A stretch of DNA of 64,000 nt from Vicinamibacteria bacterium (GTDB taxonomy: Bacteria; Acidobacteriota; Vicinamibacteria; Marinacidobacterales; Marinacidobacteraceae). The notes under the pieces are model-generated. The model did no database searches, was not told the DNA's origin, and was given only the letters and a program-made list of their open reading frames with translations. The stretch is taken from assembly GCA_963555995.3 (NCBI GenBank), contig OY821641.1:32001-96000 (forward strand), written 5' to 3'. Of the stretch, positions 30,839 to 55,584 are shown one piece after another; within the stretch, counting starts at the first letter, position 1, and each line of letters begins with the position of its first letter. Both the position numbers and the translations under genes were made by a program.

Positions 30839-30851
30839 GACCGCATTCTAG

Positions 30852-31021
30852 TGCGGTGTCCCACAAATCCTGCGGTATTCGAGCGGCGATGCATCCCGCC
30901 TGACCGCTTCGCTCGGCGTTCCGAATCCATCGGAATACACTCGGTATTCCTCCGGATTCGCGCCTTGTCAGGCGGGCGCCTCGCCGCTCTCGGTAACTCA
31001 CAGGATTTGCGGGACACCACA
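30852..31021 (-). mobile_element. MITE-like element, variant termini, same structured core as the 179-bp family
   Basis: About 21-bp TIR TGCGGTGTCCCACAAATCCTG / CAGGATTTGCGGGACACCACA; CTAG on both sides; core GGAATACACTCGGTATTCC..CGCGCCTTGTCAG. Confidence 0.8.
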
Positions 31022-31087
31022 CTAGTGGTCGCCGGCCTGGGAGCCCGCGGATCGAGCGGCGTGACGCGTGGCTGCTAACCTTCGCCC

Positions 31088-31699
31088 ATGCCCGTTTCGC
31101 CTCTCGCGTCGGCGATCCGCATCCGGGCGGAACCGCGCGACGTCACGACCTGCCGCTTCGTGGTGGACCGTCCCGTGCTTCCCGGGGGTTCGGTTTACTT
31201 CGATACCGCCGCCGGGGCGGAGAACTCCCCGATGGCGCGGGAACTCCTGAGCATTCCCGGGGTCTCCGGGGTGTTGATCCAGGACAACCTGATCACGGTG
31301 ACGGCGGCGGAGAACCAGGCCAACTGGATGCCGATCGGCCGCGAGGCGGGAAAGCGGATCCGGTCGGTCCTCGAGGGCGCCGAGCCGGCGGTGGACCCCG
31401 AGGTACTCGCCGACCTTCCGGCGCCGGAGGACATCCGGGACCGCGTCCAGGCCGTCCTGCGCGACGAGATCAACCCGGCCGTCGCCTCCCACGGGGGATA
31501 CATAGATCTCGTCGGAGTGGAGCGGAACCAGGTCTTCATCCGCATGGGAGGAGGCTGCCAGGGGTGCGGGATGGCGACGGCTACCCTCCGCCAGGGGGTC
31601 GAGAAGATCCTGCGCCGGGCGGTTCCGGAGATCGGCGCCATTCTGGACACCACGGACCACGCTGCCGGGACGAACCCGTACTACGAGCCAGCTCGGTAG
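31088..31699 (+). CDS. NifU/NfuA-type Fe-S cluster carrier
   Basis: Nfu_N-like N-terminus; INPAVASHGG; GGGCQGC; DTTDHAAGTNPYY. Confidence 0.9.
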   Translation: MPVSPLASAIRIRAEPRDVTTCRFVVDRPVLPGGSVYFDTAAGAENSPMARELLSIPGVSGVLIQDNLITVTAAENQANWMPIGREAGKRIRSVLEGAEPAVDPEVLADLPAPEDIRDRVQAVLRDEINPAVASHGGYIDLVGVERNQVFIRMGGGCQGCGMATATLRQGVEKILRRAVPEIGAILDTTDHAAGTNPYYEPAR

Positions 31700-31748
31700 A
31701 AGGCGAGGGGTCCCGCCCAGCGCGGGCGCCGGGACGAGACACCCCATC

Positions 31749-34010
31749 GTGACTTCGCGCAGACGATCTCCGGTCCGTGAGCGCCTCGGAAGCCCGCTCC
31801 TGCTCCTGGCCCTGATCCTTCCCGCTCTGGCCGAAGGCGCACCGGTCCAGTTCGGCCAGCAGCGGAATCGCGAGCAGCGGGAAGCGCCGCCCGTGGCGTG
31901 GAGCCACGATCCGCCGCCGGCGGGCACCATGATCACGCGCGCCGAACACGTGACCCGCGAGGGCTCCCACGTCGTCCTCGATGGCTACGCGCAGGTGGCC
32001 TACGAAGGACTCCGGATCCAGGCCGACCGCATCGAGATCAACGAGGAGGAGCTGAGCGTTCGGGCGGAGGGCAACGTCGTCTTCGAACGGCGTGACGAGA
32101 AGATCGTCGCCGAGTCCATGGAAGGCAGCCTCGAGGATGGGACGGCGGTCTTCAGGAACGCCCGGGGAATCCTCGGGCAGGACTTTCATTTCGTCGCCGA
32201 GACCCTCGAGGAACTCGACGACGGGGCGTTCGCGATCGAGCGGGGAGCGTTCACCACCTGCGCCCAGCCGAATCCGCGCTGGAAGTTCACCGCGACCCGC
32301 GCCGTCGTCCGGCCGGAGAAACATGTGTGGCTGCGCAACGTCGCGTTTCGGGTCAAGGACCTGCCGGTGAGCTACTTCCCGGCGCTCTACTACCCCCTCG
32401 AGGAGGACGGCCGGCAGACCGGCTTCCTCATCCCGCGCTACAGCAACTCGGACCTCCGGGGACACCTCATCAGCCAGGGTTTCTACTGGGCCATCAACCG
32501 CTCGATGGACGCGACGTTCAGCGTGGACCACTTCACGGTGGCGGGCACCGGTCTCGGCATGGAGTACCGCTATCGCGGGAACAGCGGTTCGCGGGGCGAA
32601 GCCGAAGGGTTCCTCATCAACGACAAGACCACCGAGAACCGGGAGTACTCGCTCAGCTTCAACGTGGCGCAGCGGCTGCCGGCGCGATTCCGTTTCAGCG
32701 CGGCCGGCGACATGTTCTCGAGCTTCGACTTCAGCCGGCGTTTCCAGGATTCCTTCTCGCGCTCCACCCGGCGGTTCCAGCGCGCCAAGGTGGACCTCAG
32801 CGGCCAGCTCTTCCGTCACCGCCTCAAGTTCAAGATTGATCGCAAGGACACCCAGTACACGTCCCGGAGCAGCCGCCGGCAGACGATGCCTTCGTTCTCG
32901 ATCACCCGGCGGAACCTGAACCTGCTGGGGCAGTTCGTCCAGCTCGGTTACGAGGCCAACTACGTGCGCGTGGGCCGCTCGCGCCGGGATGACTTCCAGG
33001 AGTGGAACCGGCTCTTCGTGGGGCCGACCCTGGGCCTCTCGCTTCCCGAGATCCCGTTCCTGCAACTGCGGGCGGAGATTGACGCGGGGTATCTGCGCTA
33101 CGGCGGTTCGATAGACCCTGAGACGGACGACTTCAATCCGGAGCTGGGACTGAGCCGGCGGTTCTACGGCACGTCCCTGCAACTGTCCGGTCCCAAGTTC
33201 GAACGTATCTTCGACACCGCGGGCAACTTCTACGCCGCCCGCTTCAAGCACCTGATCGAGCCGGAAGCCAACTGGGAGTACCGCAAGAGCGACGACAAGG
33301 ACGACTACGTCAACCGCTTCGACCGCTACGACAGCTCCACGCAGACGAACCAGATCAGCTTCGGGCTGGTGAACCGCGTGCTCGCCAAGCGCTACCGGGA
33401 TGGCGTCGAGGAATCGTCGGCGACCGACGTCATTACCTGGCGCATCCAGCAGAGTTGGTACTTCGACCCGGAGGCGGGCGCGTACGACTCCCGCTACGTG
33501 TCCTCTTCCTTCGAGGAGAGCGAAGTGGAGATACGGAAGTCCCCCATCCGCTCGGACTTCCGCTTCACTCCGGACCAGAGCGTGAACGGCGACTGGACCA
33601 TGGAGTGGGATCCGGACGAGCGGCTCTTCACCTCCATCCGCACCGGGTTGCGCGTCGGGGACCGGCTCTCCAACCGAAGGTTCAACTTCAACTGGTCCCG
33701 CCGCGCGCGCCGGGTCGGCGGGCCGGACAGCGAAGAAGTGGACGCGAAGAGCTATCTCCGCGCCGGCACCGACTTCTTCCCGACCGAAGTCGTTCGCACC
33801 GGTTTCGACGTCAACTACGACATCACCGAGCGGCGATTGTCCAACGTCCGGCTGCGCGCCGATCTCCTGTTCCAGTGTTGCGGGCTGAACGTGGAGTGGA
33901 TCCGCTACAACCTCGTGAGCCGGAGCGAGAACATCTTCCACTTCAGCATCACCCTCGGCGGCCTCACCAGCTTCGGTTTCGGCTCCGGTGGCCGCGACAG
34001 CTACTACTGA
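31749..34010 (+). CDS. lptD: LPS-assembly outer membrane protein LptD
   Basis: OstA-like N-terminus, FTTC, RQTGFLIP, FYWAINRSMDAT, beta-barrel with QCCG. Confidence 0.85.
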   Translation: MTSRRRSPVRERLGSPLLLLALILPALAEGAPVQFGQQRNREQREAPPVAWSHDPPPAGTMITRAEHVTREGSHVVLDGYAQVAYEGLRIQADRIEINEEELSVRAEGNVVFERRDEKIVAESMEGSLEDGTAVFRNARGILGQDFHFVAETLEELDDGAFAIERGAFTTCAQPNPRWKFTATRAVVRPEKHVWLRNVAFRVKDLPVSYFPALYYPLEEDGRQTGFLIPRYSNSDLRGHLISQGFYWAINRSMDATFSVDHFTVAGTGLGMEYRYRGNSGSRGEAEGFLINDKTTENREYSLSFNVAQRLPARFRFSAAGDMFSSFDFSRRFQDSFSRSTRRFQRAKVDLSGQLFRHRLKFKIDRKDTQYTSRSSRRQTMPSFSITRRNLNLLGQFVQLGYEANYVRVGRSRRDDFQEWNRLFVGPTLGLSLPEIPFLQLRAEIDAGYLRYGGSIDPETDDFNPELGLSRRFYGTSLQLSGPKFERIFDTAGNFYAARFKHLIEPEANWEYRKSDDKDDYVNRFDRYDSSTQTNQISFGLVNRVLAKRYRDGVEESSATDVITWRIQQSWYFDPEAGAYDSRYVSSSFEESEVEIRKSPIRSDFRFTPDQSVNGDWTMEWDPDERLFTSIRTGLRVGDRLSNRRFNFNWSRRARRVGGPDSEEVDAKSYLRAGTDFFPTEVVRTGFDVNYDITERRLSNVRLRADLLFQCCGLNVEWIRYNLVSRSENIFHFSITLGGLTSFGFGSGGRDSYY

Positions 34011-34100
34011 TGCGTGCACAGCCGGCTCCGGAGGTCGGCCCGGTTGGTGTGAGAATGCCGCCTGGGCGAAAGGTCCACCAGCGCACGTTGCACTGCCGGT

Positions 34101-34265
34101 TGGGAGCGCCGGTCTTCAGACCGGCACGCGCTGCGCCGCAGCGCAGCGCACGGCACGACGCTTACCTGCGTGGTGGCGTTCCGCTCCTGGTTCATCACCG
34201 CGAACTGCAACACGACATCCGCGGGCCTTCGGCCCGCTGTGCCGGTCTGAAGACCGGCGCTCCCA
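34101..34265. repeat. REPIN-like element, variant palindrome
   Basis: TGGGAGCGCCGGTCTTCAGACCGGCAC ... GTGCCGGTCTGAAGACCGGCGCTCCCA; interior aligns with the 3648/22001/61316 copies. Confidence 0.88.
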
Positions 34266-34326
34266 GCGGTGTTCCGAGACCGAGCGCCGCCACAGTGGTG
34301 AACTTCATTCCCGCGCATAACCGACC

Positions 34327-35049
34327 GTGGTTTCCCTGCTCGCGCTGAACGGCGTCCTCGCCTTCCTGGGCTGGCGGCTCCGGACCGTGACCGGCGCCGG
34401 TGCGCTCGCCGGATTCGTGGTCGGCGCCGCGGTCGTCCTGAGCCTGGGCGGGCCCGGGTACGGAGTGCTGCTCCTCTACTTCGCGCTCGGCGTCCTCGCG
34501 ACCCGGATCGGCTGGACGCGCAAACGGGCTCTCGGGATCGCGGAGGCCCGGGGCGGCGCGCGCGGACCACGGCAGGTGGCCGCGAACGGTGGACCGCCGG
34601 TGCTCTTCTGCCTTCTCGCCGGTCTCTTCCCGGTTTCCTGGGGCGCGCCCGCCGCTGCCGCGTTCGTCGGGTCGCTCGCCACCGCCGCCGCCGACACGGT
34701 CTCTTCGGAAGTGGGGAAATTCCTGGGAGGGACGGTTCGGCGGCTCCCCGGCCTCTCCCGGGCGCCGGCCGGGACGCCCGGTGGGGTCAGCTTCGGAGGT
34801 TCGGCCGCGGGGCTCCTCGCCTCCTTCGCGATCTGCGGCGCCGCCGCGGGGGGCGGGCTGATCCCGCCGGCATGGTTCCTGCCGGTGGCCGCCGCCGGGT
34901 TCGTGGCCGCCCTTTTCGAAGGTCTGCTCTCCCCGCTCGAGGCCCGCGGGACGCTCGGCAACGACGGAGTCAACGCTGTTTCCGTCTTCGCCGGCGGGCT
35001 CCTGGCGTTCGGGTGGGGATGGCTCGCGAGTGGGGGCGCGCCGGCTTGA
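34327..35049 (+). CDS. DUF92 (TMEM19/VTE6-like) membrane protein
   Basis: GGARGPRQVAANG, ATAAADTVSSEVG, GTPGGVS..GS, NDGVN. Confidence 0.88.
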   Translation: MVSLLALNGVLAFLGWRLRTVTGAGALAGFVVGAAVVLSLGGPGYGVLLLYFALGVLATRIGWTRKRALGIAEARGGARGPRQVAANGGPPVLFCLLAGLFPVSWGAPAAAAFVGSLATAAADTVSSEVGKFLGGTVRRLPGLSRAPAGTPGGVSFGGSAAGLLASFAICGAAAGGGLIPPAWFLPVAAAGFVAALFEGLLSPLEARGTLGNDGVNAVSVFAGGLLAFGWGWLASGGAPA

Positions 35050-35960
35050 TCCGGTCCTTGACGCGGCGTCTCGGGCTCTACCGCGAATTCTCGCGGCCGT
35101 TCACCCTGCTGCCCCCCCTGATCGGTTTCCTCAGTGGGAGCGTCACCGCGTTCGGCGCGCCGCCCGCCCTCGAGACCGTCCCCTGGATCTATCCCGTCCT
35201 GGGGGCGGTCATGGCCGCCACCCTGAACGCGGCGAGCAACGCCCTGAACCAGATCTGCGACCTCGGGATCGATCGCATCACCAAACCGGACCGGCCGCTG
35301 CCTTCCGGGCGGCTGGGCCTCGCGGAAGCATGGTGGTTCACGGCGGTGTGCTGGGCCGGGTCGCTGGTCGCGGCGTGGTTCGTGAGTCCCGGCGGCCGGC
35401 GCGAGTGCTTCTGGATCGTCGTGGTGGCGAGCGTCTTCGTCTGGATGTACTCCGCGCCGCCGCTCAGGACGAAGCGGCTCGGCATGCTGGCGAACCTGAC
35501 GGTCGCCGTTCCCCGCGGGCTACTGCTCAAGGTGGCCGGCTGGTCGGCGCTCAAGTCGGTACTCGATCCCGAACCCTGGTTCATCGGGCTCATCTTCGGC
35601 CTGTTCCTGCTCGGCGCCACCACCACCAAGGACTTCTCCGACATCGCCGGAGACCGTGCGGGAGGCTGCCGGACGCTCCCGGTGGTGCACGGTCCGCGGG
35701 GCGCGGCCTGGCGGATCGCCCCGTTCTTCGTCCTGCCCTTCGTGCTGATTCCCGTGGGGGTCCGCACCGGTCTGCTGACCGGCAATCCCGTGCTGCTGGA
35801 CGCGCTCGGCGTCACGCTGGTGCTCTACGGGGCCTTCACGGCGTGGCTCATGCTGCGCCGTCCCGACGAGCTGGCGACCTGCAACCACGTGTCCTGGCGG
35901 CACATGTACCTGATGATGATGGTCGCCCAGCTCGGGTTCGCGGCCGCGTATCTCGTCTGA
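35046..35960 (+). CDS. UbiA-family prenyltransferase (DGGGP synthase/chlorophyll synthase-like motifs)
   Basis: RPFT, NALNQICDLGIDRITKPDRPLPSG, YSAPPLR, KDFSDIAGDRAGGCRTLPV; TTGA overlap with the DUF92 gene. Confidence 0.88.
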   Translation: MIRSLTRRLGLYREFSRPFTLLPPLIGFLSGSVTAFGAPPALETVPWIYPVLGAVMAATLNAASNALNQICDLGIDRITKPDRPLPSGRLGLAEAWWFTAVCWAGSLVAAWFVSPGGRRECFWIVVVASVFVWMYSAPPLRTKRLGMLANLTVAVPRGLLLKVAGWSALKSVLDPEPWFIGLIFGLFLLGATTTKDFSDIAGDRAGGCRTLPVVHGPRGAAWRIAPFFVLPFVLIPVGVRTGLLTGNPVLLDALGVTLVLYGAFTAWLMLRRPDELATCNHVSWRHMYLMMMVAQLGFAAAYLV

Positions 35961-36014
35961 GCCGGGGCGCTCATCTCGCCCGGGGAGGGGCGGCGGTCCT
36001 ATACTGGCGCTCCC

Positions 36015-37334
36015 GTGAGCCAAACGTTTTCCCGCCGCAACCTGGGTCCCGGCCTCGCCGAACGGGACCCCGAAATCGCCGCCGCCATCCATGCCGAGGA
36101 GATCCGCCAGTCGGAGGGTCTCGAACTGATCGCGTCCGAGAACTTCGCGAGCGACGCGGTCATGGAAGCCACCGGTTCGGTGATGACCAACAAGTACGCC
36201 GAGGGGTACCCCGGCCGGCGCTACTACGGGGGCTGCATCCACGTGGACGAGGCGGAACGGCTGGCCCGCAACCGGGCCAAGGAACTCTTCGGTTCCCGGT
36301 TTGCGAACGTCCAGCCCCACAGCGGGTCCCAGGCCAACATGGTCGCCTACCAGGCGATCCTGGAACCGGGCGACACCTTCCTCGGCATGGCCCTCGACCA
36401 GGGTGGACACCTCACCCACGGCCACCCGCTGAACTTCTCGGGCCAGTTCTACCACCCCGTCGCCTACGGGGTGCGGCGGGAGGACGAACGCCTCGACCTC
36501 GACCAGTTGGCGCGGCTCGCCCGGGAACACCGGCCCAAGATGATCATGGTGGGCGCGAGCGCGTATCCGCGCCTCTATCCGAGCGCGGAAATCCGGCAGA
36601 TCGCGGACGAGGTCGGAGCGAAGGTGGTCACCGACATCGCGCACGTGGCCGGCCTGGTCGCGGGCGGCGCCATCCCGAGTCCGGTGCCCCATTCGGACGT
36701 CGTCACCACCACCACGCACAAGACGCTGCGGGGGCCGCGCGGGGGGCTCATTCTCTGGAACGAGAAGGCGTACGGAAAGGCGCTCAACCGGATCACCTTC
36801 CCGGGGATCCAGGGCGGGCCGATGATGCACACGATCGCCGCCAAGGCGGTGTGCTTCCGGGAGGCGCTCGATCCGTCCTTCGCCGAGTACGCGCGCCAGA
36901 TCGTGATGAACGCCAGGGCGCTTGCCGAGGCGCTCATGGGGCTGGGGTTCCGGCTGGTTTCCGGGGGGACCGACAACCACCTCGTGCTGGTGGACGTGGG
37001 CGCCCGGGGGATCACCGGCCGCGACGCCGAAGTGGCCATGGAGACCGCGGGGATCACCGCGAACAAGAACACCATCCCCTTCGACCCCGAGAAGCCCATG
37101 ATCGCGAGCGGCATCCGGCTGGGGACGGCGGCGCTCACCACCCGGGGAATGCGGGAGCGCGAGATGGCCGAGGTCGCGCGGCTGATGGACGCGGCGCTCC
37201 GGTCGGCGGGGGATGAGGCGGGGCTCGCCCGGATCGCCGCCGAGGTCGCCGAGCTGGCCTCCGGGTTCCCGCTGTACGTAACAGCCTGTGGCGAAACCCT
37301 CGCGAGCGCCGAGAGCGGTGAGGCGCCCGGTTGA
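36015..37334 (+). CDS. glyA: Serine hydroxymethyltransferase
   Basis: [44 protein letters not shown]. Confidence 0.97.
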
Positions 37335-37460
37335 CAAGGCGCGTGAGGGAGGAATACCGGGTGTATTCCGACCGATGCGCAACGATGAGCGCCGCGAAGC
37401 GGGGCGGTTCAGCCGGGATGCATCGCCGCTCGAACGCCGCGAGGGTTTTGGCACAGGCTG
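37282..37460 (+). mobile_element. 179-bp MITE-like element overlapping the glyA 3' end
   Basis: CAGCCTGTG...CACAGGCTG termini; core GACAAGGCGCGTGAGGGAGGAATACCGGGTGTATTCC. Confidence 0.85.
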
Positions 37461-37521
37461 TTGACGTCGGCGGCGTGAACGGCGGGAGCGCCGGCCGGCC
37501 GCCGGCGGGGGCGCGCCGGGA

Positions 37522-39528
37522 ATGAGCCGGGCGGCCGATTTCCTCGGTCCCCGCGGGGTGCTCTCCGAGTCGCTGCCCGGTTTCGAGCACCGCGCCGGGC
37601 AGGTGGAGATGGCGGCGCGCGTCGAGGCGACGCTGAACGGCGACGGGGCGCTGATGATCGAGGCGGGAACCGGGATCGGCAAGTCGTTCGCCTATCTGAT
37701 CCCGGCGCTCCTCTGCGGGGAGCGGGTGGTGATCTCGACGGCGACCCGGAACCTCCAGGACCAGCTCTTCGAGAAGGATCTTCCCCAGCTTCAGGGCCTG
37801 CTGGGAAGCCGGGTCCCGGTGGCCCGGATGAAGGGACGGGAGAACTACCTGTGCAAGCTGGAGTGGGCGAAGTTCCAGACCGAAGGGGACCTGAAGCTCG
37901 ATTCCCGGCGCAGCGCCGACCTGCGCCGCATCGCCCGCTGGGCGGAGAAGACGAAGACCGGAGACCGCGACGAGATCCGGGGACTCCGGGGGCCGGCCGA
38001 CTACTGGCGCGGCATTTCCACCATTTCCGAGAACTGCATCGGCCGCCGCTGTCCCCATCACGAGGAGTGTCACCTGACGACCCTGCGGAAGCAGGCGCAT
38101 TCCAGCCGGATCCTGATCGTGAACCACCACCTGCTGGTGGCGGACCTGATCGTGCGCCAGACCGATTTCGGCGAGGTGCTGCCCGAGTACGACCACCTGA
38201 TCGTGGACGAGGCCCACCGGCTCGAAGACGCCGCCACGCATGGCCTTTCGAGCACGCTCTCCGGGGCGGCGGCGGACCGGCTCGCGACCGACCTGACGCG
38301 CTTCCTCAAGCGATCGGCCCCCGAACTCGCCTCCCCTCCGGCCATCCGCAAGCTCCGGCGTTCGTACGGCGAGCTCTTCGAGACCCTCGAACCCGAACGC
38401 GACGACCGGCCGCGGCTGTTCCATCCCGAGAGCCTGCCCCCCGAGGCCAGGGAGCACGCCGAGGCGGCCTCCCTGCAACTCCAGGCCCTCGAAGGCCATC
38501 TTCTGAAGGTGCGGGAAGCCCTGAGAGAGAACCCGCCGCCGGACGGGAGCGATGGCGAGACCGGCGCCGAGCGGCTGCTGAAGCGCGTCGCCGAGTTCCG
38601 CATCGAGTTGACCGCGCTGATGACGCCGCGACCCGACTACGTCCACTGGAGCGTGTTCCGGAGAGAGGCCGCGCGTCCGGAAAACGGGAACGGCAGGGCC
38701 CGGCCCCGCCGCGGGTCCACCTGCTTCGCCAGCACCGCCCCGGTGCATCCCGGCGGCGAACTGCGGCAGGGGCTCTTCGATCCCCTGAAGTCCTGCGTGC
38801 TGACCTCCGCGACGCTGGCGCTCGACGGCGGCTTCGACTACGCCGCCGACGCGCTCGGGGTGACGGCGGCCTCGGGAAAGGTCGTCCCCTCGCCCTTCCA
38901 GTTCGAGGATCAGGCGCGGCTCTACGTTCCGCGCGACCTGGTGGACCCCCGCGACCCGGGGTTTCAGGATGCCGCCGCCGACCGGATCCTCCACCTGGTC
39001 GGCGCCAGCCGGGGCCGGGCCCTCATCCTGTTCACGAGCTGGGGGAACCTGGACCGCGTGGGCCGGGTGCTCGGGACGGCCTGTCCCTTCCCGGTGCTGC
39101 GGCAGCAGCGCGGCGGCGGCCACGCGGCGCTCCTCAACTCCTTCCGGGAAACGCCGAACGCGGTCCTGCTGGGAGTGCGCTCGTTCTGGGAGGGGGTGGA
39201 CGTTCCGGGAGACGCGCTCACCCTGCTGGTGATCGACAAGCTGCCCTTCCCGGTGCCGTCGGATCCCCTGCACCGGGCGCGCGCCGACCGTGCCGAGGAG
39301 GCGACCGGCGACGGCTTCGCCAACTACTCGGTGCCGCAGGCGGCCCTGACCCTGAAGCAGGGTCTCGGCCGGCTGATCCGGACCCAGCAGGATGTCGGGC
39401 TGGCCGCGGTCCTCGACTCGCGCCTGGTGCGCATGGCCTACGGCCGCCGGCTGCTGCGCAGCCTGCCGCCCTTCCCCCTGATCACGGGGCTCGACGAGGC
39501 GACCGGGTTCCTGGAGTCGCTGCCGTGA
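37522..39528 (+). CDS. DinG/YoaA-family ATP-dependent DNA helicase
   Basis: EAGTGIGKS, KGRENYLC, NHHLL, DEAH, TSATL, FWEGVDVPG, KQGLGRLIR. Confidence 0.93.
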   Translation: MSRAADFLGPRGVLSESLPGFEHRAGQVEMAARVEATLNGDGALMIEAGTGIGKSFAYLIPALLCGERVVISTATRNLQDQLFEKDLPQLQGLLGSRVPVARMKGRENYLCKLEWAKFQTEGDLKLDSRRSADLRRIARWAEKTKTGDRDEIRGLRGPADYWRGISTISENCIGRRCPHHEECHLTTLRKQAHSSRILIVNHHLLVADLIVRQTDFGEVLPEYDHLIVDEAHRLEDAATHGLSSTLSGAAADRLATDLTRFLKRSAPELASPPAIRKLRRSYGELFETLEPERDDRPRLFHPESLPPEAREHAEAASLQLQALEGHLLKVREALRENPPPDGSDGETGAERLLKRVAEFRIELTALMTPRPDYVHWSVFRREAARPENGNGRARPRRGSTCFASTAPVHPGGELRQGLFDPLKSCVLTSATLALDGGFDYAADALGVTAASGKVVPSPFQFEDQARLYVPRDLVDPRDPGFQDAAADRILHLVGASRGRALILFTSWGNLDRVGRVLGTACPFPVLRQQRGGGHAALLNSFRETPNAVLLGVRSFWEGVDVPGDALTLLVIDKLPFPVPSDPLHRARADRAEEATGDGFANYSVPQAALTLKQGLGRLIRTQQDVGLAAVLDSRLVRMAYGRRLLRSLPPFPLITGLDEATGFLESLP

Positions 39529-40914: not shown

Positions 40915-40924
40915 GACGGCCCGG

Positions 40925-42747: not shown

Positions 42748-42786
42748 TCGGAACTCTTGCGCCGGCTGGGAGCTCCCCCCGCTTGT

Positions 42787-44709
<1,923 letters not shown>

Positions 44710-47309: not shown

Positions 47310-47328
47310 CCTTGGTACGCCGGGCGGT

Positions 47329-48432
47329 TCACGCGAGAGTCCCGGCCGACGCCTCCGGACGCAACGTGCGGTACTTGGTGTCCCTTTGAACCGGAGTGAA
47401 ACCGGCTTCCCGGATCAGGATCTGCACCTCGTCAATGCTCGTGCGGTTGATGAAACCCGTGCACGCGTGAACGTTCTCCTCGAGCAGGGTGCCCCCGAAG
47501 TCGTCGGCGCCCCAGTGAAGGCCGACCTGGCCGGCCTTCTTCCCCTCGCTGAACCACGATGCCTGGATGTGATCGAAGTTGTCCAGCATCAGACGCGAGA
47601 CACCGAGGATACGGAGGTAGTCGTTCGGTCCCGCGTAGTGCGGGATCTTCCGGACGAGCGGCGTGTTGCCGGGTTTGAAACTCCAGGGCACGAACGCCGT
47701 GAAACCGTGGAACTCGTCCTGCAGCTCGCGGATGCTCAGCAGGTGGGTGACGATGTCTTCGGTCGTTTCCACGTGGCCGTACATCATGGTCGCGGTACTC
47801 ACGAATCCCACCGCGTGGGCCTCGCGATGCACATCGAGCCAGGCGGCCGCTCCCCCCTTCTTGTGGGACACCTTCCGCCGCACCCGGTCGCTCAGGATCT
47901 CGGCGCCGCCGCCGGGGAGCGTGTCCTGCCCAGCCTCCTTGAGCTTGACGAGGACCTCGCGAATGCCGAGCCTGCTGACCTTCGCCATACCTTCGACCTC
48001 GACGGCCGACCAGTAGTGCGGGGTCACCTCCGGAAAGCGTTCGCGCGTACCGCGGACGAGATCGAGGTAGTAGTCGAGCGGCAGCGACTCGTTCACCCCG
48101 CCCTGCAGGAGGACGGTGGTCGCGCCCTGCTCGACCGCCCTGCCGATGCGGTCCAGCATTTCCTCGACCGAATGGGTATAGGCCTCCGCGTGTCCCGGGG
48201 GCCGATAGAAGGCGCAGAAGGTGCAGTCCACCTCGCAGACGTTCGTGTAGTTGGGATTCGTATCGACCACGAAGGTGACTTCCCGCTCCGGATTCCGGCG
48301 GAAACGGTCGTGGTTGGCAAGCTCTCCGACGAACAGCAGGGGAGCCTCGTCCATCAACCAGACGGCATCAGCTTCCGAGAGCCGCACGCGGCTCTCCACC
48401 TTGCGCCGGATCCGGTCCATTGCGCCAGTCAT
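47329..48432 (-). CDS. mqnC: Cyclic dehypoxanthinyl futalosine synthase (radical SAM)
   Basis: NYTNVCEVDCTFCAF, LLQGG, PGGGAEIL, ATMMYGHVE, HIQASW; cluster context. Confidence 0.88.
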   Translation of the reverse strand: MTGAMDRIRRKVESRVRLSEADAVWLMDEAPLLFVGELANHDRFRRNPEREVTFVVDTNPNYTNVCEVDCTFCAFYRPPGHAEAYTHSVEEMLDRIGRAVEQGATTVLLQGGVNESLPLDYYLDLVRGTRERFPEVTPHYWSAVEVEGMAKVSRLGIREVLVKLKEAGQDTLPGGGAEILSDRVRRKVSHKKGGAAAWLDVHREAHAVGFVSTATMMYGHVETTEDIVTHLLSIRELQDEFHGFTAFVPWSFKPGNTPLVRKIPHYAGPNDYLRILGVSRLMLDNFDHIQASWFSEGKKAGQVGLHWGADDFGGTLLEENVHACTGFINRTSIDEVQILIREAGFTPVQRDTKYRTLRPEASAGTLA

Positions 48433-49220
48433 GACACGCCGTTCCTTGCCTCCGAGGGGGGAATCAGATCGTTTTCGCTCACCAGTCGCCGGAAGGTTTC
48501 AAGACCCCGGCGCTCCAGTTCGTCGAAACGATAGGTGAAGTCCGAGAGATACGTCGCGATGGTCGCTCGTTCTCCCAGCGGCCCTGCCGCCTCGTCCGCG
48601 ATTTCGGGAATCCTCTCGACGCCGCGCTCGAGCGAGGCGGCGATCGTTTCCCGGAGCCCGGACCGCTTGGCCGAAGTCAGCGACCGGCGCGCGCTCCAGA
48701 TCGCGAAGACGAAGGGCAGTCCGGTCCAATCCCTCCAGCGGGCAGCGAGGTCGTAACGGTAGGGGAACCGCGGATCGGGCCGTTCCCGCTCCCGAAGCGC
48801 CTCGTCGCCGATCAGGAGGACGGCCTCGTGCTCCCGTGTGATCCCCGGGCGGTACTCCGGACGCTCGATGCCGAGCCGCTGTTCGAGCCAGAGCCGGAGC
48901 AACAGCACCGAGGTCGAGGTCTCCCGGGTGATCTCGACGATCTTGCCGCCGAGCTGCTCCGGCGGGCGCCGCGACAGCAGAAACACGCTTCCCGCCTGCT
49001 CGCGGCACGCGATTCCGAAGGCGCCGCGCGGGTCCCCCAGCGGCGAGTACCGTGCTTCGTTGCGCATCAGGTCTCCCGCCGAAAGAAGTCCGGCGTCGAG
49101 TTCGGAAGTCGCCGCGAGCCGGCCGATCTCGGACGGAGACGCGCGGAACACGCGCAGGCCCGGAAAGGGCTCGAAGGGCCGGGTATTGAGGTAGGCGAGT
49201 TGCCCGAGCAGCAGGCGCAC
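48429..49220 (-). CDS. mqnA: Chorismate dehydratase
   Basis: YLNTRP, TSTSVLL, LLIGDEAL, DLAARWRDWTGLPFVFAIW. Confidence 0.88.
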   Translation of the reverse strand: MRLLLGQLAYLNTRPFEPFPGLRVFRASPSEIGRLAATSELDAGLLSAGDLMRNEARYSPLGDPRGAFGIACREQAGSVFLLSRRPPEQLGGKIVEITRETSTSVLLLRLWLEQRLGIERPEYRPGITREHEAVLLIGDEALRERERPDPRFPYRYDLAARWRDWTGLPFVFAIWSARRSLTSAKRSGLRETIAASLERGVERIPEIADEAAGPLGERATIATYLSDFTYRFDELERRGLETFRRLVSENDLIPPSEARNGVS

Positions 49221-49249
49221 TGGGGAGAATCGGCTCCGCGGGCGGTCAG

Positions 49250-49428
49250 CAGCCTGTGGATAAAGTGACGTGAGTGCCGAGAACGCCGAGGCGCCCGGCT
49301 GACAAGGCGCGTGAGGGAGGAATACCGAGCGTATTCCGACCGAAACGCAACGCAGAGCGCCTCGTAGAGGCGCGGTTCAGGCAGGATGCATCGGCGTTCG
49401 AATGCCGCGTGACTTTGTCCACAGGCTG
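49250..49428 (+). mobile_element. 179-bp MITE-like element
   Basis: CAGCCTGTGGATAAAG...CTTTGTCCACAGGCTG; flanks TCAG and CTAG, where the CTAG contains the mqnE stop. Confidence 0.88.
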
Positions 49429-50541
49429 CTAGGCGGCCTCCCAGACCTGGACCTCGTTGTAGAGCGCGTCGCGCTCCACGGGGACCTTGCCGGCGTCCTG
49501 GATCATCTGGATGAGCCGCTCGCGGGCGACGCCGACCGGACTCGTCGCCTGCGCGAGATGCGCGATCTTCTCTTCGCCGATGGTTCCGTCGAGGTCACTG
49601 GCTCCGAAGTTCAGCGCCATGGCGGCCGAGTCCTCGCCGAGCATCACCCAGTAAGCCTTGACGTGGGGAAAGTTGTCGAGGAGCAGCCGGGCGCAGGCGA
49701 CGGTTCGGAGATCCTCGAGCACCGACGCCTGACGCTCGGCGAGCCCGGTGTTGCCCGGCTGCAGGGCGAGCGGGATGAACGACTGGAACCCGGCATCCGA
49801 CGGATCGCGGCCGTCCTGCGCTTCCCGAAGCTGGATCATGTGATCCACCCGTTCGGCGAGCGTCTCGATGTGCCCGTAGAGCAGGGTCGCGTTCGTCATG
49901 ATCCCCATGCGATGAGCCGCCCGATGCACTTCGAACCAGCGTTCACGCCCGATCTTGGTCTTGAACGTCTCCTTGCGGACGCGGTCCGAGAACACCTCCG
50001 CGCCACCCCCCGGGAGCGTCCGGAGGCCCGCCTCCTTCAGTTGGATCAGAATGTCCTCGATGGTGGTTTTCTCCAGCCGGGCGAACCAGTCGATCTCGAC
50101 GGCGGTCCACGCCTTGATCTGGACGGTCGGATGGTTCCGATGGATCTCGCGAACGATCTCGAGATAGCGGGCGAAGGGCCACTTGGGGTGCAGGCCGCCG
50201 ACGATATGGACCTCGGAGAGTTCGTCGGATACCTGGGCGAGGACATCCTCGATGGACTGTTCGTAGGCGTGTGCGTCGCCCGGCTTGGCGGCGAAGTCGC
50301 AGAAGACGCAGGAAAGGACGCACAGGTTCGTCGGGTTGATCTGCCGGTTCACCACGAACTGGACCCGGTCCCCGTTGCGCGCCCGGGCGGCGTGGTCCGC
50401 CATCCGGCCCAGCGCCGGCAGGTCAACGGTCCGGAGCAGGGTCATTCCGTCGTCGAAATCGAGGCGGTCTCCGGCCAGGACTTTCTCCCAGATCGGGACC
50501 AGGGAGCGGTCGCGGAACGCGACGCCTTCGGCAATCAGCAC
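49429..50541 (-). CDS. mqnE: Aminofutalosine synthase (radical SAM)
   Basis: INPTNLCVLSCVFCDF, EVHIVGGLHP, IKAWTAVEI, HVKAYWVM, EEKIAH; start GTG 50541 inferred. Confidence 0.88.
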   Translation of the reverse strand: MLIAEGVAFRDRSLVPIWEKVLAGDRLDFDDGMTLLRTVDLPALGRMADHAARARNGDRVQFVVNRQINPTNLCVLSCVFCDFAAKPGDAHAYEQSIEDVLAQVSDELSEVHIVGGLHPKWPFARYLEIVREIHRNHPTVQIKAWTAVEIDWFARLEKTTIEDILIQLKEAGLRTLPGGGAEVFSDRVRKETFKTKIGRERWFEVHRAAHRMGIMTNATLLYGHIETLAERVDHMIQLREAQDGRDPSDAGFQSFIPLALQPGNTGLAERQASVLEDLRTVACARLLLDNFPHVKAYWVMLGEDSAAMALNFGASDLDGTIGEEKIAHLAQATSPVGVARERLIQMIQDAGKVPVERDALYNEVQVWEAA

Positions 50542-50577
50542 AGGGAATCTCGGGGGCGAAAAATCGTAGCACGGCGA

Positions 50578-50719
50578 GGAGCGCCGGTCTTCAGGCCCAA
50601 TACTGTTGCCTTTGGCACGAGACCGCCCTGATTCGATGGCCTGGGGGCCGGTTTGGAGGCACTTCAAGCGATGCTTGAGGTACTAAAGCAACAGTATTGG
50701 GTCTTCAGGCCGGCGCTCC
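50578..50719. repeat. Long imperfect inverted repeat with REP-like ends
   Basis: GGAGCGCCGGTCTTCAGGCCCAATACTGTTGC at 50578 pairs with GCAACAGTATTGGGTCTTCAGGCCGGCGCTCC ending at 50719. Confidence 0.75.
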
Positions 50720-50735
50720 AGAGCGCCGCTCCTAG

Positions 50736-50914
50736 CAGCCTGTGGACAAAGTCACGCGGTGTTCGGCGGGCGATGCATCCCGGCTGAACCGCGCCGCTTT
50801 GCGGCGCTCTGCGTTGCGTTTCGGTCGAAATACACCCGGTATTCCTCCCTCACGCGCCTTGTCAGCCGGGCGCCTCGCCCACCTCGGCGCTCACGTCACT
50901 TTATCCACAGGCTG
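50736..50914 (-). mobile_element. 179-bp MITE-like element (inverted relative to the 49250 copy)
   Basis: CTAG-CAGCCTGTGGACAAAG...CTTTATCCACAGGCTG-CTAG; the right CTAG contains the ubiX stop. Confidence 0.9.
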
Positions 50915-51466
50915 CTAGCGGGTTTCTTCTTCGCGCCACCCGGGGGCGTCGCTGACCCCGAGCACTCCGAGCACCTTGTCGCAGAAGCCGTCCACGACTT
51001 CGGCCATGGAGTCGGGGTTCCGGTACCAGGGAGGGGCCACGGGCATCACGATCCCACCCGCTTCGGAAACGGCGAGGGCGTTCCGCAGGGTGATCGTGGA
51101 CCAGGGGGTCTCGCGCACGCAGAGGACGAGGCGCATGCGCTCCTTGAGGGCGACCTGCGCCGCCCGGGTGATCAGGGTGTCCGCGATTCCGTTCGCGACC
51201 TTGCCCAGCGTCGAAAGGCTGCACGGGATCAGAACGAGGGCGTCGTAGCGGTTGGAACCCGAAGACCAGGGCGCGGCCAGATCGGAGTCGCGATGGACGC
51301 GTCGGACGTGTCCCTTCAGGTCGTCCAGCGCCAGGCCGGTCTCGAGCCGCAGCACCTCCTCTCCCCAGCGGGACACGATGAGGTGTTTCTCGCCCGGACA
51401 GCGTTTCAGGAACCGAACACCGTAAACCGCTCCCGAAGAGCCCGACATGCCGACGACGATTCTCAT
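50915..51466 (-). CDS. ubiX: Flavin prenyltransferase UbiX
   Basis: MRIVVGMSGSSG, SSGS, PCSLSTL, LITRAAQVALKE, RETP. Confidence 0.92.
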   Translation of the reverse strand: MRIVVGMSGSSGAVYGVRFLKRCPGEKHLIVSRWGEEVLRLETGLALDDLKGHVRRVHRDSDLAAPWSSGSNRYDALVLIPCSLSTLGKVANGIADTLITRAAQVALKERMRLVLCVRETPWSTITLRNALAVSEAGGIVMPVAPPWYRNPDSMAEVVDGFCDKVLGVLGVSDAPGWREEETR

Positions 51467-52314
51467 GACCACGGGACGGAAGTTCGGGACAGCAGAATGC
51501 CCAGGAAGACGACGCATCCCAGCACGGCGTTCACCTGAAAGAAGGCGAAGTTCACCCGGTGCCGGAGTTGATGTTGCAAGAGGAAGAGACCGCCGGTGAG
51601 GATGAACAGGAGACCGGGCACCGTGCCCTGCAGCGAGGTGGAGAACAGAATCATAAGAGCAGCGAACGCGAGCGCATGCATCCCGGCAGCAACCCTGGCG
51701 GCCTGCCGGCTTCCGATCGCCGCCGGCAGCGAGAAGACGCCGGTCCGGCGGTCCGATTCCTCGTCGAGGGTTGCATAGAGAATGTCGAAGCCGGCGGACC
51801 AGAGCGCCGTAAAGACGGACAGCATCACGATCGGAAAGAGACCGCGCCACTCGAGAGCCACCGCGTAGAAGCCGCATAGCGGGCCGAGGGCGAGCGTGAC
51901 GCCGAGTCCGAGGTGCGCCCACCGGGTGGTTCGCTTCAGGAGTGGATAACCGACGAAGGCCGCCAGCGGAATGGGAGCGATGGCCAGGCAACGGGGCGAG
52001 ATCGCCCAGGCCGCAAGCAGGGCGACGACGAACGCGAACACCGCCACGGCCACCGCACTGCGAAGAGAGATCTCGCCGGCCGGCAGGGCGCGATTCGCGG
52101 TGCGTGGATTCTGTGCGTCGAGGCGACGGTCGAGGATGCGGTTCAGCCCCAGCGCGGTCGTGCGCGCCCCCGTGGCCGCGATGAGAATCAACACCGCCGT
52201 GCGCAGCGTGAGTGGAGGTTCCGCGAGCAGCGCGCCCGCATAGATCAGCGGCACCGAGAACAGCGTATGTTCGATCTTGAGGTAGTCGGCCCAGACCTTG
52301 AGGCGGTGTTTCAT
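51463..52314 (-). CDS. UbiA-like polyprenyltransferase of the futalosine pathway (MqnP-like)
   Basis: KIEHTLFS, NRILDRRLDAQNPRTANRALPAG, GFDILYATLDEESDR, AFFQVN. Confidence 0.88.
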   Translation of the reverse strand: MKHRLKVWADYLKIEHTLFSVPLIYAGALLAEPPLTLRTAVLILIAATGARTTALGLNRILDRRLDAQNPRTANRALPAGEISLRSAVAVAVFAFVVALLAAWAISPRCLAIAPIPLAAFVGYPLLKRTTRWAHLGLGVTLALGPLCGFYAVALEWRGLFPIVMLSVFTALWSAGFDILYATLDEESDRRTGVFSLPAAIGSRQAARVAAGMHALAFAALMILFSTSLQGTVPGLLFILTGGLFLLQHQLRHRVNFAFFQVNAVLGCVVFLGILLSRTSVPWS

Positions 52315-52453
52315 CGATGGCGGCAGGTTACCGGACGCGTCCCGGACAAAGTTTCCTTATGCTCGCGTGGCCACGGTTGCCGTGGAGATGCAGTGTAGGC
52401 GAGCGGTCCACCGCCGCTCCTGGCAATCCATCCCTTGGGGAGATATCCATAGG

Positions 52454-52483
52454 TTGACCAAACCTCGAACGCGGTGTTACGCT
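52454..52483 (+). promoter_or_regulatory. Putative sigma70 promoter of the histone-like gene
   Basis: TTGACC, 18-nt spacer ending in TGT, then TACGCT (extended -10). Confidence 0.45.
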
Positions 52484-52569
52484 GAATTCGTGGGTTGCAC
52501 AGCCGAGCCCGGTTTCGTTGGTTCGTTTCCGGTCGGGCCGGTTCCTCGCGAGGGGTGAAAGGACCTGTA

Positions 52570-53715
52570 ATGAAGAAAAAGGCCAGACGGTCGGCCAAGA
52601 AGAAAACGCGCAGGAAGGTCGCTGCGCGTGTGGCGTCGCGTACAGGCGCCACCCGAAAGAAAGTCTCGCGCAAGAAGGCAACGCGTAAGCGGTTGACGCG
52701 CACCGCGACGGCGCGCAAGGCAACGCGCAAGAAGGCAGCGCGCAAGAAAGTGACCCGGAGGAAGGTGTCGCGCAAGAAAGCCACCCGCAAGAAGGTGACC
52801 CGGAAGAAGGCGACCCGGAAGAAGGCGTCCCGAAAGAAAGTGACTCGCAAGAAGGCCACTCGGAAGAAGGCGACCCGCAAGAAAGCGTCCCGGAAGAAAG
52901 CCACCCGAAAGAAGGCCACGCGCAAGAAGGCATCCCGGAAGAAGGCATCCCGGAAGAAAGCCACCCGAAAGAAGGCCACGCGGAAGAAGGCGACCCGAAA
53001 GAAGACCACGCGCAAGAAGGCGTCCCGGAAGAAGGTGACCCGGAAGAAGGTGACCCGGAAGAAGGCGACCCGCAAGAAGGCGTCCCGGAAGAAAGCCACC
53101 CGCAAGAAGGCGACCCGCAAGAAGGCATCCCGGAAGAAGGCGACCCGCAAGAAGGCGTCCCGGAAGAAAGCCACCCGCAAGAAGGCGACCCGCAAGAAGG
53201 CATCCCGGAAGAAGGCGACCCGAAAGAAGGCCACGCGCAAGAAGGCGTCCCGGAAGAAGGTGACCCGGAAGAAGGTGACCCGCAAGAAGGCGTCCCGGAA
53301 GAAAGCCACCCGGAAGAAAGCCACCCGGAAGAAAGCCACCCGGAAGAAGGCGACCCGGAAGAAGGCCACGCGGAAGAAGGCGTCCCGGAAGAAAGCCACC
53401 CGGAAGAAGGCGACCCGGAAGAAGGCCACGCGGAAGAAGGCGTCCCGGAAGAAAGCCACCCGGAAGAAGGCGACCCGGAAGAAGGCGACCCGGAAGAAGG
53501 CGACCCGCAAGAAGGCGACCCGCAAGAAGGCGACCCGCAAGAAGGCATCCCGGAAGAAAGCCACCCGCAAGAAGGCGACCCGCAAGAAGGCGACTCGAAA
53601 GAAGGCGACTCGCAAGAAGGCGACCCGGAAGAAGGCCACCCGCGCCGCCGCGGCGCCGCCCGAGCCCCCCGCGGTGACCTCACCTCCGGCGCCGGAACCG
53701 GCCGCCTCTTCCTAG
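52570..53715 (+). CDS. Histone H1-like, highly basic pentapeptide-repeat protein
   Basis: ATG 52570 after AAGGA; 61 consecutive RKK(A/V/T)(T/S/A)-type units at 52726-53640; synonymous third-position variation; Pro/Ala tail. Confidence 0.85.
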   Translation: MKKKARRSAKKKTRRKVAARVASRTGATRKKVSRKKATRKRLTRTATARKATRKKAARKKVTRRKVSRKKATRKKVTRKKATRKKASRKKVTRKKATRKKATRKKASRKKATRKKATRKKASRKKASRKKATRKKATRKKATRKKTTRKKASRKKVTRKKVTRKKATRKKASRKKATRKKATRKKASRKKATRKKASRKKATRKKATRKKASRKKATRKKATRKKASRKKVTRKKVTRKKASRKKATRKKATRKKATRKKATRKKATRKKASRKKATRKKATRKKATRKKASRKKATRKKATRKKATRKKATRKKATRKKATRKKASRKKATRKKATRKKATRKKATRKKATRKKATRAAAAPPEPPAVTSPPAPEPAASS

Positions 53716-53903
53716 CCGGTTCCGCCCGGACCAGCCGGCGGGCCGCGCTTCGCCGCCGGGATGCAGGGGTCCGCCCCCCGATGGAACCGGGGTCGGCGCC
53801 ACCGGTCTCGGGGTCGTTTCGAGGCCGGTCCCTATGCTAAATTCTTCGGCCCGCTACCCGCGATTTCCACAACTTCCACTGCTTCGGGGAGGAGAGTTCC
53901 GCC

Positions 53904-55292
53904 GTGCGTTTCCACTGTCCGCCATCCACCAAGGGCGCCAGCCGCTGGCGTCGCAGCATCGTCGTCGCCGGATTCTGCCTGGCTCTCACCGCCAGCGCCT
54001 GCGGCGGGCCGGACATCGGCGTTACCGGGGAGGAAATCCGCCTGGGCAGTTTCGCTCCGCTGACGGGACCCTATGCGGCGCTTGGCAACGTCGGGCGCTC
54101 GATGGCCGCCTACTTCGAGTGGCTCAACGATCAGGGGGGCATCCACGGCCGCATGGTCCATCTGAGTCTCAAGGACGATCAGGGAGATCCCGAGCGGACT
54201 CCGGCCCTCGTTGAGGAACTGTTGCGGGAGGAGCAGGTCTTCGCGATGGTGGGCGGGATGAGCAGCGCCAACACCCTCGCGGTCCGGGAAGCGGTGGGTT
54301 TGCGGCTGGTGCCCTGGGTGAATCCCGGCTCCAGCGCACGGGAGTGGACAGACCCGCTCGACGCCTACATCTTCTCCATTCTGCCCACCTCCGTTACCGC
54401 GGCGCAGGTTCTGGCCCGCTACGCGATGAGTGAACTGGGGGTGAACCGGATCGCCTCGCTGGCGGAAGACACCCCCTTCGGGATCCAGGGGCAGGAGGGC
54501 TACCGGCTGGGTGTCCGGCGCTTCTACGAGCAGGTGGCGGACGCGCTTCCGGAAGGCGTGGAGGTGCGCTACGCGCGGATCTCCAGCCGTCCCCGGCGCC
54601 CGCGGACCGAGGACCCCACCAGCGAGGGATGGCACGAGTACCCGACCGGAGGCGAAGGGGTCCTGTGGCGGGTCCAGCGGGTTGACGGCGGCCGTTGGGG
54701 CCGGCCCGAGGCTGCTCCGGAAGACGTCGGGATGCGTCGCAGCCCGAAGGAAGGCGGCGGCATGGAAGCTGCCCTCGCCGAGTTCAAGGAAAAGCAGGCC
54801 GGGGCGATTCTCATCTGGGGCGTCGCCGAGTACGGCGCCGAGGTCGTGAAGGCGATCGCCGCCGATCCGGACTGGAATCCGATCCTGCTCGGTGGGTTCG
54901 CGATGGCCGATACGGCGATGATCGATCTCGCGGGCGAGGCGTTCGAGGGAGCGATCGTGGCCTCGACCACCCCCGACCTCTCGGTTGATTCGGACTCCAC
55001 CCGCCTCGTGAAGCAGATTCTCGCCGACTACGCGCCCGACGTGCCGTTCGGCGACTACGCCATGCTGGGAATGGCCTGGGCTCAACTGGCTCACGAGGGC
55101 ATGGAACGGGCCGGAGAGGACCTCAGGCGCATCAACCTCATTCGCGCCCTCGAAACCATTGACAACTGGCAGGGCCTGCTGGGTCATCCCGTGACGTTCT
55201 CCGACGAGAGTCACCTCGGTTTCGACGCGGTGACGCTGAAGCGCGTCGAGGACGGCGAGTTCGTCGCCATCACCGGCTGGCTCTCGGAGTAG
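53904..55292 (+). CDS. LivJ/K-type ABC substrate-binding lipoprotein
   Basis: ASAC lipobox; IRLGSFAPLTGPYA; NDQGGIHGR; DDQGDP. Confidence 0.85.
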   Translation: MRFHCPPSTKGASRWRRSIVVAGFCLALTASACGGPDIGVTGEEIRLGSFAPLTGPYAALGNVGRSMAAYFEWLNDQGGIHGRMVHLSLKDDQGDPERTPALVEELLREEQVFAMVGGMSSANTLAVREAVGLRLVPWVNPGSSAREWTDPLDAYIFSILPTSVTAAQVLARYAMSELGVNRIASLAEDTPFGIQGQEGYRLGVRRFYEQVADALPEGVEVRYARISSRPRRPRTEDPTSEGWHEYPTGGEGVLWRVQRVDGGRWGRPEAAPEDVGMRRSPKEGGGMEAALAEFKEKQAGAILIWGVAEYGAEVVKAIAADPDWNPILLGGFAMADTAMIDLAGEAFEGAIVASTTPDLSVDSDSTRLVKQILADYAPDVPFGDYAMLGMAWAQLAHEGMERAGEDLRRINLIRALETIDNWQGLLGHPVTFSDESHLGFDAVTLKRVEDGEFVAITGWLSE

Positions 55293-55326
55293 TCCGAACC
55301 CGCGCGCGCCTTGGTGGCCCGGCGGC

Positions 55327-55486
55327 TTGGAACGCCGGCTTCAGCCGGCACAGCGGCCCGCAGGGCCGCGGGCGGTTCGTCGCTACCCCGGGCCCAGTGG
55401 CGCGCGCAGCCGCGCCATCTCGGGGCGTGAGGTCCTTCCCGCCGCCCGCCTCCGGCGGGCTGTGCCGGCTGAAGCCGGCGTTCCAA
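55327..55486. repeat. REPIN-like element
   Basis: Same inverted 25-bp arms, between convergent genes. Confidence 0.9.
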
Positions 55487-55547
55487 GCCGGTGGCGCCAT
55501 CCGGGCTGGTGGCCAACGCCGCACGGGCGCACTCTCACAGCAACTGA

Positions 55548-55584
55548 CCGCTCTCGGCGCTCACGCGGGTTTGTCCACAGGCTC
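55548..55584 (-). repeat. Partial end of the 179-bp MITE family, overlapping the livF stop
   Basis: CCGCTCTCGGCGCTCACGCGGGTTTGTCCACAGGCT resembles 50878-50913. Confidence 0.65.

Follow-up and report, generated by a model that had tools for sequence, protein, structure and literature searches.

Does the interior of a MITE (miniature inverted-repeat transposable element) matter to the element that carries it? MITEs are usually described as hollowed-out insertion sequence (IS) elements with an irrelevant interior. This question is raised by a 64,000-nt stretch of the genome of a Vicinamibacteria bacterium (3.8 Mb, 70% GC), which corresponds to G000:C1:32001-96000 and is referred to below as the window; positions are those of the window unless a contig is given. 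A first-pass annotation of the window described a MITE-like family with a folded core inside exchangeable ends, and proposed that the core is a selected RNA or single-stranded DNA (ssDNA) structure that could be an uncharacterised mobile noncoding RNA (ncRNA) module. The five features on which this proposal was built are all present at the positions given for them (Table 1). What is new here, judging from sequence comparison, is the combination of two named IS end types with one core of the type carried by the Correia element of Neisseria. We propose, with roughly even confidence, that the interior of these MITEs is a folded ssDNA rod that is selected at copying, and that the elements are moved in trans by two unrelated DDE transposases.

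A family of MITEs inserted at new sites

The elements are non-coding, 170-180 bp long and have a terminal pairing of ~23 bp. Their core consists of the 5' box CAAGGCG, a TAN-loop-NTA hairpin, and the 3' box CAACG. The genome-wide BLAST collection foreseen by the first-pass annotation yielded 83 full-length copies, 77 of type A, with the ends CAGCCTGTGG, and 6 of type B, and a covariance model located 105 cores across the genome at E ≤ 0.1. Exactly 179 bp were found in 73 of the 77 type-A copies, and the three 179-bp copies in the window agree with each other at 146-159 of 179 bases. The same type-A element is also present in two Acidobacteria records (L216 and L222).

To establish mobility, sites in the window were compared with the corresponding sites in relatives. 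The 49250 site is empty in all seven relatives in which both anchors are present; six of these are 183 bp shorter (86 versus 269 bp) and hold a single TCAG, and these 183 bp are also missing from a contig of a related strain. The element is likewise missing from the 37282 site in all 14 relatives with both anchors, four of which are exactly 183 bp shorter (96 versus 279 bp). At this site the C-terminus of the glyA product is replaced by ~17 element-encoded codons, and glyA of the relatives stops a few codons past the target. The intergenic region at 50736 also contains independent copies in relatives: a variant at the identical CTAG in one, and full or partial copies of reversed orientation at a TTAG close by in four. 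A 4-nt empty interval was found in at least one relative for 8 of 13 further sites, the remaining 5 not being cleanly alignable, and the relatives offered no readable empty site for the 30852 copy. Among the relatives compared, the insertions are species-specific. Being short, multi-copy, bounded by terminal inverted repeats and inserted at new sites, this is a real MITE family.

The flanks of the insertions show a simple target duplication in only part of the copies. The net gain is 179 + 4 bp, but among the 77 type-A copies only 37 have identical 4-mers on both sides. Where no palindromic duplication is present (44 type-A copies), the two bases beside each end are complementary and not duplicated in 33 cases, and at the two empty sites that were inspected closely the right flank is altered in the filled site. 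This pattern points to arm-to-arm correction.

At 37 element-gene junctions, the stop codon of the gene falls within the element or its flank; at the 49250 copy, for example, the right flank provides the stop codon of a minus-strand radical-SAM (CofH/MqnC-like) gene. Such a location at gene ends is explained by the YTAR target, which contains stop codons. Element and flanks together measure 183, 174, and 273 bp in the three main classes, each length being divisible by three, but in-frame insertion was rejected because none of 84 element sites lies wholly within a called gene. Relative to host transcription, the folded strand is sense in 20 and antisense in 36 of the co-oriented sites (p = 0.044); genes were called here and above with our own gene caller. 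Replication showed no strand bias (41 leading versus 43 lagging).

Besides the full-length copies, the genome holds 269-bp variants with an 89-bp insert, nested copies, and tandem arrays. In the nested copies (G000:C1:278029, 861651, 2890302, and 2494277), one element sits directly 3' of the 5' box of another. The position of insertion is identical in the three that are readable; the composite may be copied as a unit, or the position may be a hot spot. The 269-bp variants (G000:C1:1174907-1175175 and seven alike) carry a hairpin-rich insert of 89-90 bp after position 151. Many copies in relatives (L056, L065, L069, L327, L336, and L356), and fragments in the window genome, have arms that are interrupted or replaced by a short CCAGTTCTCCCGGTGGGGG-like motif, which is possibly another small mobile unit.

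Two unrelated insertion sequences share the ends

Three near-identical IS of 1,515 bp in the genome have CAGCCTGTGGTGAAA ends in common with the main MITE subfamily and are flanked by true 4-bp duplications. Their 475-aa protein contains DUF772 and DDE_Tnp_1, and its best family is NCBIfam IS1182 with 146 bits, below the cut-off of 270; the element is therefore called IS1182-like. Of 55 genomes of the order, 10 have type-B ends, and each of the 10 belongs to the same genus. In three genomes of this genus (G001, G004, and G013), they bound an element of ~1.14 kb with an IS630 transposase (276 bits against an NCBIfam IS630 cut-off of 100), and the first 18 nt of the left end of this IS630 element are identical to the type-B left end. 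The expectation that the core uses ends from at least two IS types was thus supported, with both donors found. The core is not present in the IS1182-like or IS630 copies, and no autonomous core-bearing element was found among these. From the shared ends, it is likely that two DDE transposases, unrelated to each other, mobilise the MITEs in trans.

Related records contain hybrids of the two types. Type-B ends surround an A-type core in L443, and in L437 and L451 they surround the same 89-bp insert as in the 269-bp A copies. In L441, an IS630 copy adjoins a type-A MITE via one CTAG, an arrangement that could allow the capture of ends. In other families of the order we read four further end types around the same core.

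Two other candidates for the partner of the B ends were rejected: an IS701-type element, as the genome has no PF13546 match, and an IS with a 594-aa DDE frame, as its ends differ. The latter is a 1.97-kb IS with CTAG flanks (G000:C1:1698330-1700300 and three more), one copy of which adjoins a 269-bp MITE. The genome also contains a 342-bp internal-deletion derivative of the IS1182-like element (G000:C1:3647893-3648234), which lacks the core and is an ordinary MITE.

A predicted one-strand fold in copies that are mosaics of helices

Compared with shuffled sequences, the fold is highly stable, with z = -9.7 for the 49250 copy and z = -14.1 for the 30852 copy; of 200 shuffles made for each, none reached the stability of the copy. 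Not all of the stems quoted in the first-pass annotation are perfect: T·G wobbles and a G·G mismatch interrupt the outer stem of the 49250 and 50736 copies, and two pairs are lost from the third stem of the 49250 copy. Under RNA parameters, the AAGG strand gives the better fold in each of the 66 distinct 179-bp copies; under DNA parameters, this strand also has the lower mean.

The strand preference was also assessed through sequence variation, by counting G·T against A·C combinations at geometry-defined pairs according to the frequency class of the variant, without correction for relatedness. Single-copy variants comprise 17 G·T and 15 A·C, as expected for decay after insertion. Variants present in at least 4 copies comprise 10 G·T and 1 A·C, plus 23 alternative Watson-Crick types (Fisher p = 0.033). 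An excess of G·T on the same strand is seen across phyla, in 30 versus 7 elements outside Streptomyces (p = 2e-4) and 14 versus 2 within it. Since the strand bias is confined to amplified variants, and the folded strand is aligned with neither host transcription nor replication, selection appears to act when the element is copied and not on host mRNA. The 11 box sites contain no shared variant, compared with 0.32 per site at other unpaired positions, which speaks for selection on the unpaired boxes.

Linkage among the copies follows the fold. Base-pair partners have a mean r2 of 0.74, and four gametes occur in 1 of 13 pairs. For sites within 30 nt of each other in different helices, r2 is 0.11 and four gametes occur in 115 of 147 pairs, to which recurrent mutation would contribute. 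Linkage by base pair rather than by distance indicates that the copies are mosaics of nested helices, and the swap of ends looks like the outermost case of this helix exchange.

The core is shared across phyla and with the Correia element

Stored genomes were searched with the pattern CAAGGCG-N11-17-TA-N7-TA-N10-16-CAACGMVG, which matches ~35,000 genome stretches as estimated from 1/64 of the collection. The 122 sampled loci fall in Pseudomonadota, Acidobacteriota, Actinomycetota, Bacillota, Desulfobacterota, Myxococcota, Gemmatimonadota, Planctomycetota, and Bacteroidota, where we assume the phylum from the genus name in the record title. A flanking inverted repeat scoring at least 15 was found in 41 of 62 long loci and at 0 of 248 control positions. 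Two hairpin pairs at positions outside the fixed pattern are Watson-Crick in 111 and 112 of 121 loci, with several pair types, and the outer stem is paired in 73-95 of 121 versus 19-31 when slid one base 3'. In a 68-sequence alignment, in which the structure is derived from the same sequences and the boxes are invariant by construction, 84% of cells pair versus 24-45% with slid partners, a control that keeps relatedness; in 361 cells both partners have changed. The prediction made for the window copies, that the fold is selected and its covariation real, is thus supported by the 66-copy set and by the cross-phylum loci.

Crude clustering gave 43 end types among 61 elements, a number that is overstated owing to imprecise end calling. 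Within its phylum the core is patchy, being found in 13 of 61 genomes at E ≤ 1e-6 (12 of 60 without the unpublished genome G088). The open reading frames flanking 48 cross-phylum loci included no recurring gene and one adjacent IS1595-type transposase, in a survey for which 95 of 129 frames were chosen, most Streptomyces were excluded and many frames are probably wrong. No match to a type-A copy was obtained by blastn in the plasmid collection. Matches to a looser pattern in viral contigs were mostly due to chance; of 120, the inverted-repeat score was passed by 11, the model identifies 4 as real elements, and type-B ends were found in none of the viral contigs.

The covariance model R1, which was built without Neisseriaceae and whose E-values come from a shortened calibration, was used to compare the core with the Correia element (CREE/NEMIS; 104-108-bp form). 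Both share the order and spacing of CAAGGCG, a TAC-n5-GTA hairpin, and CAACGC.G, and both are non-coding, foldback, and multi-copy. R1 scores a gonococcal Correia copy at 31 bits (E 7e-6; CREE range 21-34 bits) and gives 30 matches at E ≤ 0.1 in a gonococcal record of 2.17 Mb. The ends of the scored copy correspond to the Correia repeat patterns printed in PMC2649163, in which the Correia repeat is reported only in Neisseria and its mobilising mechanism is described as undetermined. In contrast, the family described here lacks the 26-bp Correia repeat and has ends from IS1182-like or IS630 elements, and it is GC-rich, with longer arms and a side hairpin. At the sequence level, these elements carry the Correia core but are not Correia elements. 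The module can thus be called uncharacterised only in part: its core is that of a described element, whereas Rfam at gathering score had 0 matches in the window and 0 in 20 loci of other genomes, and an E-value search of Rfam with two copies gave no relevant match. In the open-access main texts searched, no core common to Correia elements and MITEs of other phyla is described, and neither the cross-phylum spread of the core nor its use of many kinds of ends was found in print.

The repeats of E. coli K-12 that were compared, which we take to be ERIC, are related at the motif level only, as far as the sequences indicate. When located by the central hairpin, 12 of 12 have an upstream AAGG(C/T)R box. 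The hairpin is of the form TAC-n4-GTA, and in 10 of the 12 it is followed downstream by AACGC(A/C), some of the 3' matches lying at another offset. The ERIC/IRU elements of enterobacteria differ in their longer middle stem and 4-nt loop, and R1 leaves the aceF-lpd ERIC copy unscored and gives one weak match in K-12 (E 0.25).

REP/REPIN sequences with RAYT (HUH Y1) transposases are hairpin elements thought to be handled as ssDNA. Unlike them, the present family is bounded by terminal repeats of the DDE type, has DDE IS partners to match, and lies between YTAR flanks. Positions 55323-55490 of the window are occupied by a distinct REP-like repeat, a double hairpin with arms of 49 nt. A 23-mer of this repeat has 330 matches in the genome, 11 of them in the window (at most 2 mismatches), and one Y1 transposase is present in the genome, at G000:C1:751513.

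Ends shared with autonomous IS and a YTAR target are also features of MITEPsy1 (IS5 family, with a 4-nt CTAG/YTAA duplication; PMC3189936) and RUP (IS630; PMC2229807), for both of which mobilisation in trans is described. These IS-derived MITEs differ from the present family, in which the interior did not arise by deletion from the partner IS and one interior is combined with two transposase families. A structured MITE interior is not in itself a novelty: the bcr1 element of the Bacillus cereus group is a mobile repeat in which compensatory changes preserve a cruciform-like fold (PMC3184786). In the text consulted, bcr1 is described within Bacillus and no end exchange is reported.

Possible nature of the selected molecule

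The side hairpin bears on whether DNA or RNA is selected. In 53 of the 66 copies it is closed by a C-GNA-G triloop, each of the four bases being represented at N, and it is reduced to GC-GNA-GC in all six type-B copies and in several relatives (GCGAAGC, GCGCAGC, GCGTAGC). The GCGCCTC/GCGCCGC type of hairpin noted in the first-pass annotation accordingly does not extend to the 170-bp copy, in which it has shrunk to GCGAAGC. It has been reported that GNA is the only one of the 64 triloops to form a stable DNA mini-hairpin, that the matching RNA hairpins are much less stable (the figure being given for the tetraloop form), and that such mini-hairpins are found at ssDNA priming and promoter sites (PMC13037366). 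Considered together, the strand-specific fold in amplified variants, the lack of orientation with transcription, and the GNA loop fit ssDNA better than ncRNA.

According to the mechanism we propose, the DNA of the element would become transiently single-stranded, allowing one strand to fold and the two terminal repeats to pair. A host factor of wide conservation, and not the transposase, would recognise the invariant boxes, and the copying rate would rise; the simplest guess for the host-factor signal is one that excludes single-stranded DNA-binding protein (SSB) or is of a priming type. Any pair of IS ends could be attached as an outer ring via recombination between neighbouring elements.

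Several observations weigh against this proposal. The GNA side hairpin is lineage-specific, with TTT, GAAA, or other loops in some relatives; GC-GNA-GC or GC-GNNA-GC occurs in only 26 of 92 cross-phylum elements in the sense direction and 9 in the antisense direction, and GNA loops have a background of 14-33% in the other hairpins of the genome. No likeness was found between the model and the G4 and phiX174 origins or pT181, which leaves the priming-signal step without sequence support. The test on amplified variants is weak, since p = 0.033 becomes p = 0.054 with the cut at 2 copies and variant types are counted rather than events, and a one-strand G·T excess fits RNA equally to DNA. No IS630 with type-B ends was found in the host genome, and the transposases are assigned from end identity alone. 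Finally, symmetrisation of the flanks is a mutational route to paired changes.

The selected molecule could instead be RNA, in which case the element would be transcribed and the folded RNA would bind a transposase, a reverse transcriptase, or a host factor, or an R-loop would promote copying in cis. We consider this unlikely, although it is the strongest of the alternatives. RNA motifs typically show one-strand wobbles of the G·U type and internal-loop boxes that do not vary, and Correia transcripts fold and bind RNase III (PMC2649163, PMC10969869). Element-bearing contigs of other strains also occur in three sponge/marine RNA libraries (shares 0.05-0.12), but these data consist of contigs only, which may be DNA, come without strand or ends, and are not informative on transcription or habitat. 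The folded strand shows no bias to the sense orientation and rather the reverse, a consensus promoter scan of a single copy revealed no sigma-70 promoter or terminator, and the loops are GNA triloops, not GNRA or UNCG tetraloops. For these reasons the ncRNA module suggested in the first-pass annotation is not supported. Alternatively, there may be no selection on the fold at all, with arm-to-arm conversion or template switching in the foldback keeping the arms complementary and the core being an old passenger spread via horizontal transfer. The complementary bases beside the ends, the altered right flanks, and the coupling of left and right arms while helices reassort all agree with this. Arm-to-arm conversion indeed seems to occur, so some of the compensatory changes require no selection, and the intra-hairpin conversion that the annotation had named as a competing explanation may hold to that extent. 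However, conversion yields perfect pairs and accounts neither for the one-strand G·T excess in amplified variants nor for invariant unpaired boxes across nine phyla with unrelated arms and ends, and we judge an explanation without selection to be improbable.

Still less probable is selection at the level of the host, in which the hairpin would tune mRNA stability or termination at gene ends through RNase III/E sites, as for Correia and ERIC, where RNase processing has been reported (PMC10969869). The junctions with gene stops and the absence of sites wholly within called genes would suit such a role, but the gene-end location is already explained by the stop-containing YTAR target. Moreover, the insertions are species-specific, private variants decay without strand bias, and the orientation is not sense-biased. 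It is very improbable that the core acts as a double-stranded DNA enhancer, namely a palindromic site at which a nucleoid protein joins the two ends, like the integration host factor (IHF) site described in the 155-bp form of Correia (PMC2229807). The tightly fixed length of the type-A copies is in keeping with such a site, whereas a duplex site would yield neither a one-strand G·T bias, nor covariation over 100-150 nt, nor mini-hairpin loops.

Features of the window

The positions of the copies and their parts are collected in Table 1. The limits of the type-B copy presuppose that the IS630 convention (TA duplication) applies. Elsewhere in the genome, G000:C1:3331000-3426000 is a very large tandem repeat region with units of several kb, probably consisting of giant repeat-protein genes.

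Table 1. Copies of the MITE family, their structural parts, and the associated gene in the window.
Feature	Position	Strand	Remarks
Type-B copy, IS630-type ends	30851..31022	-	170 bp at 30852-31021; CTAG at both sides
Core of the type-B copy	30900..30981	-	model R1, 53 bits; copy belongs to the training set of the model
Serine hydroxymethyltransferase gene (glyA)	36015..37334	+	frame enters the element and ends at a TGA within it
Type-A copy in the last codons of glyA	37282..37460	+	flanks GTAA / TTGA; empty site GTAA
Core of the 37282 copy	37321..37401	+	58 bits
Type-A copy, IS1182-like ends	49250..49428	+	flanks TCAG / CTAG; empty site TCAG
5' box CAAGGC	49303..49308	+	near-invariant
Central hairpin GGAATAC-n5-GTATTCC	49319..49337	+	
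3' box CAACG	49348..49352	+	near-invariant
Side hairpin, C-GNA-G triloop	49357..49373	+	loop GTA in this copy
Type-A copy at the stop codon of a flavoprotein gene	50736..50914	-	CTAG at both sides
Core of the 50736 copy	50795..50875	-	68 bits
Left-end fragment of a type-A copy	55548..55584	-	without core

Implications for MITE biology

We tentatively suggest, as a broader and on balance doubtful proposal, that a single superfamily, built on a portable ssDNA module, comprises Correia, probably also ERIC, and a large proportion of the bacterial MITEs in at least nine phyla. Such a module would recruit a universal host factor, drive amplification independently of the transposase, and capture the ends of active IS by swapping its outer helix as a ring. 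The conservation of the core across phyla, in combination with IS ends that are unrelated, implies that the interior has a function of its own. This function may be a reason why MITEs outnumber their partner IS, as in the present genome with ~105 cores and 3 IS copies. As the genus offers two named transposases together with natural hybrids, the function of the core is directly testable.

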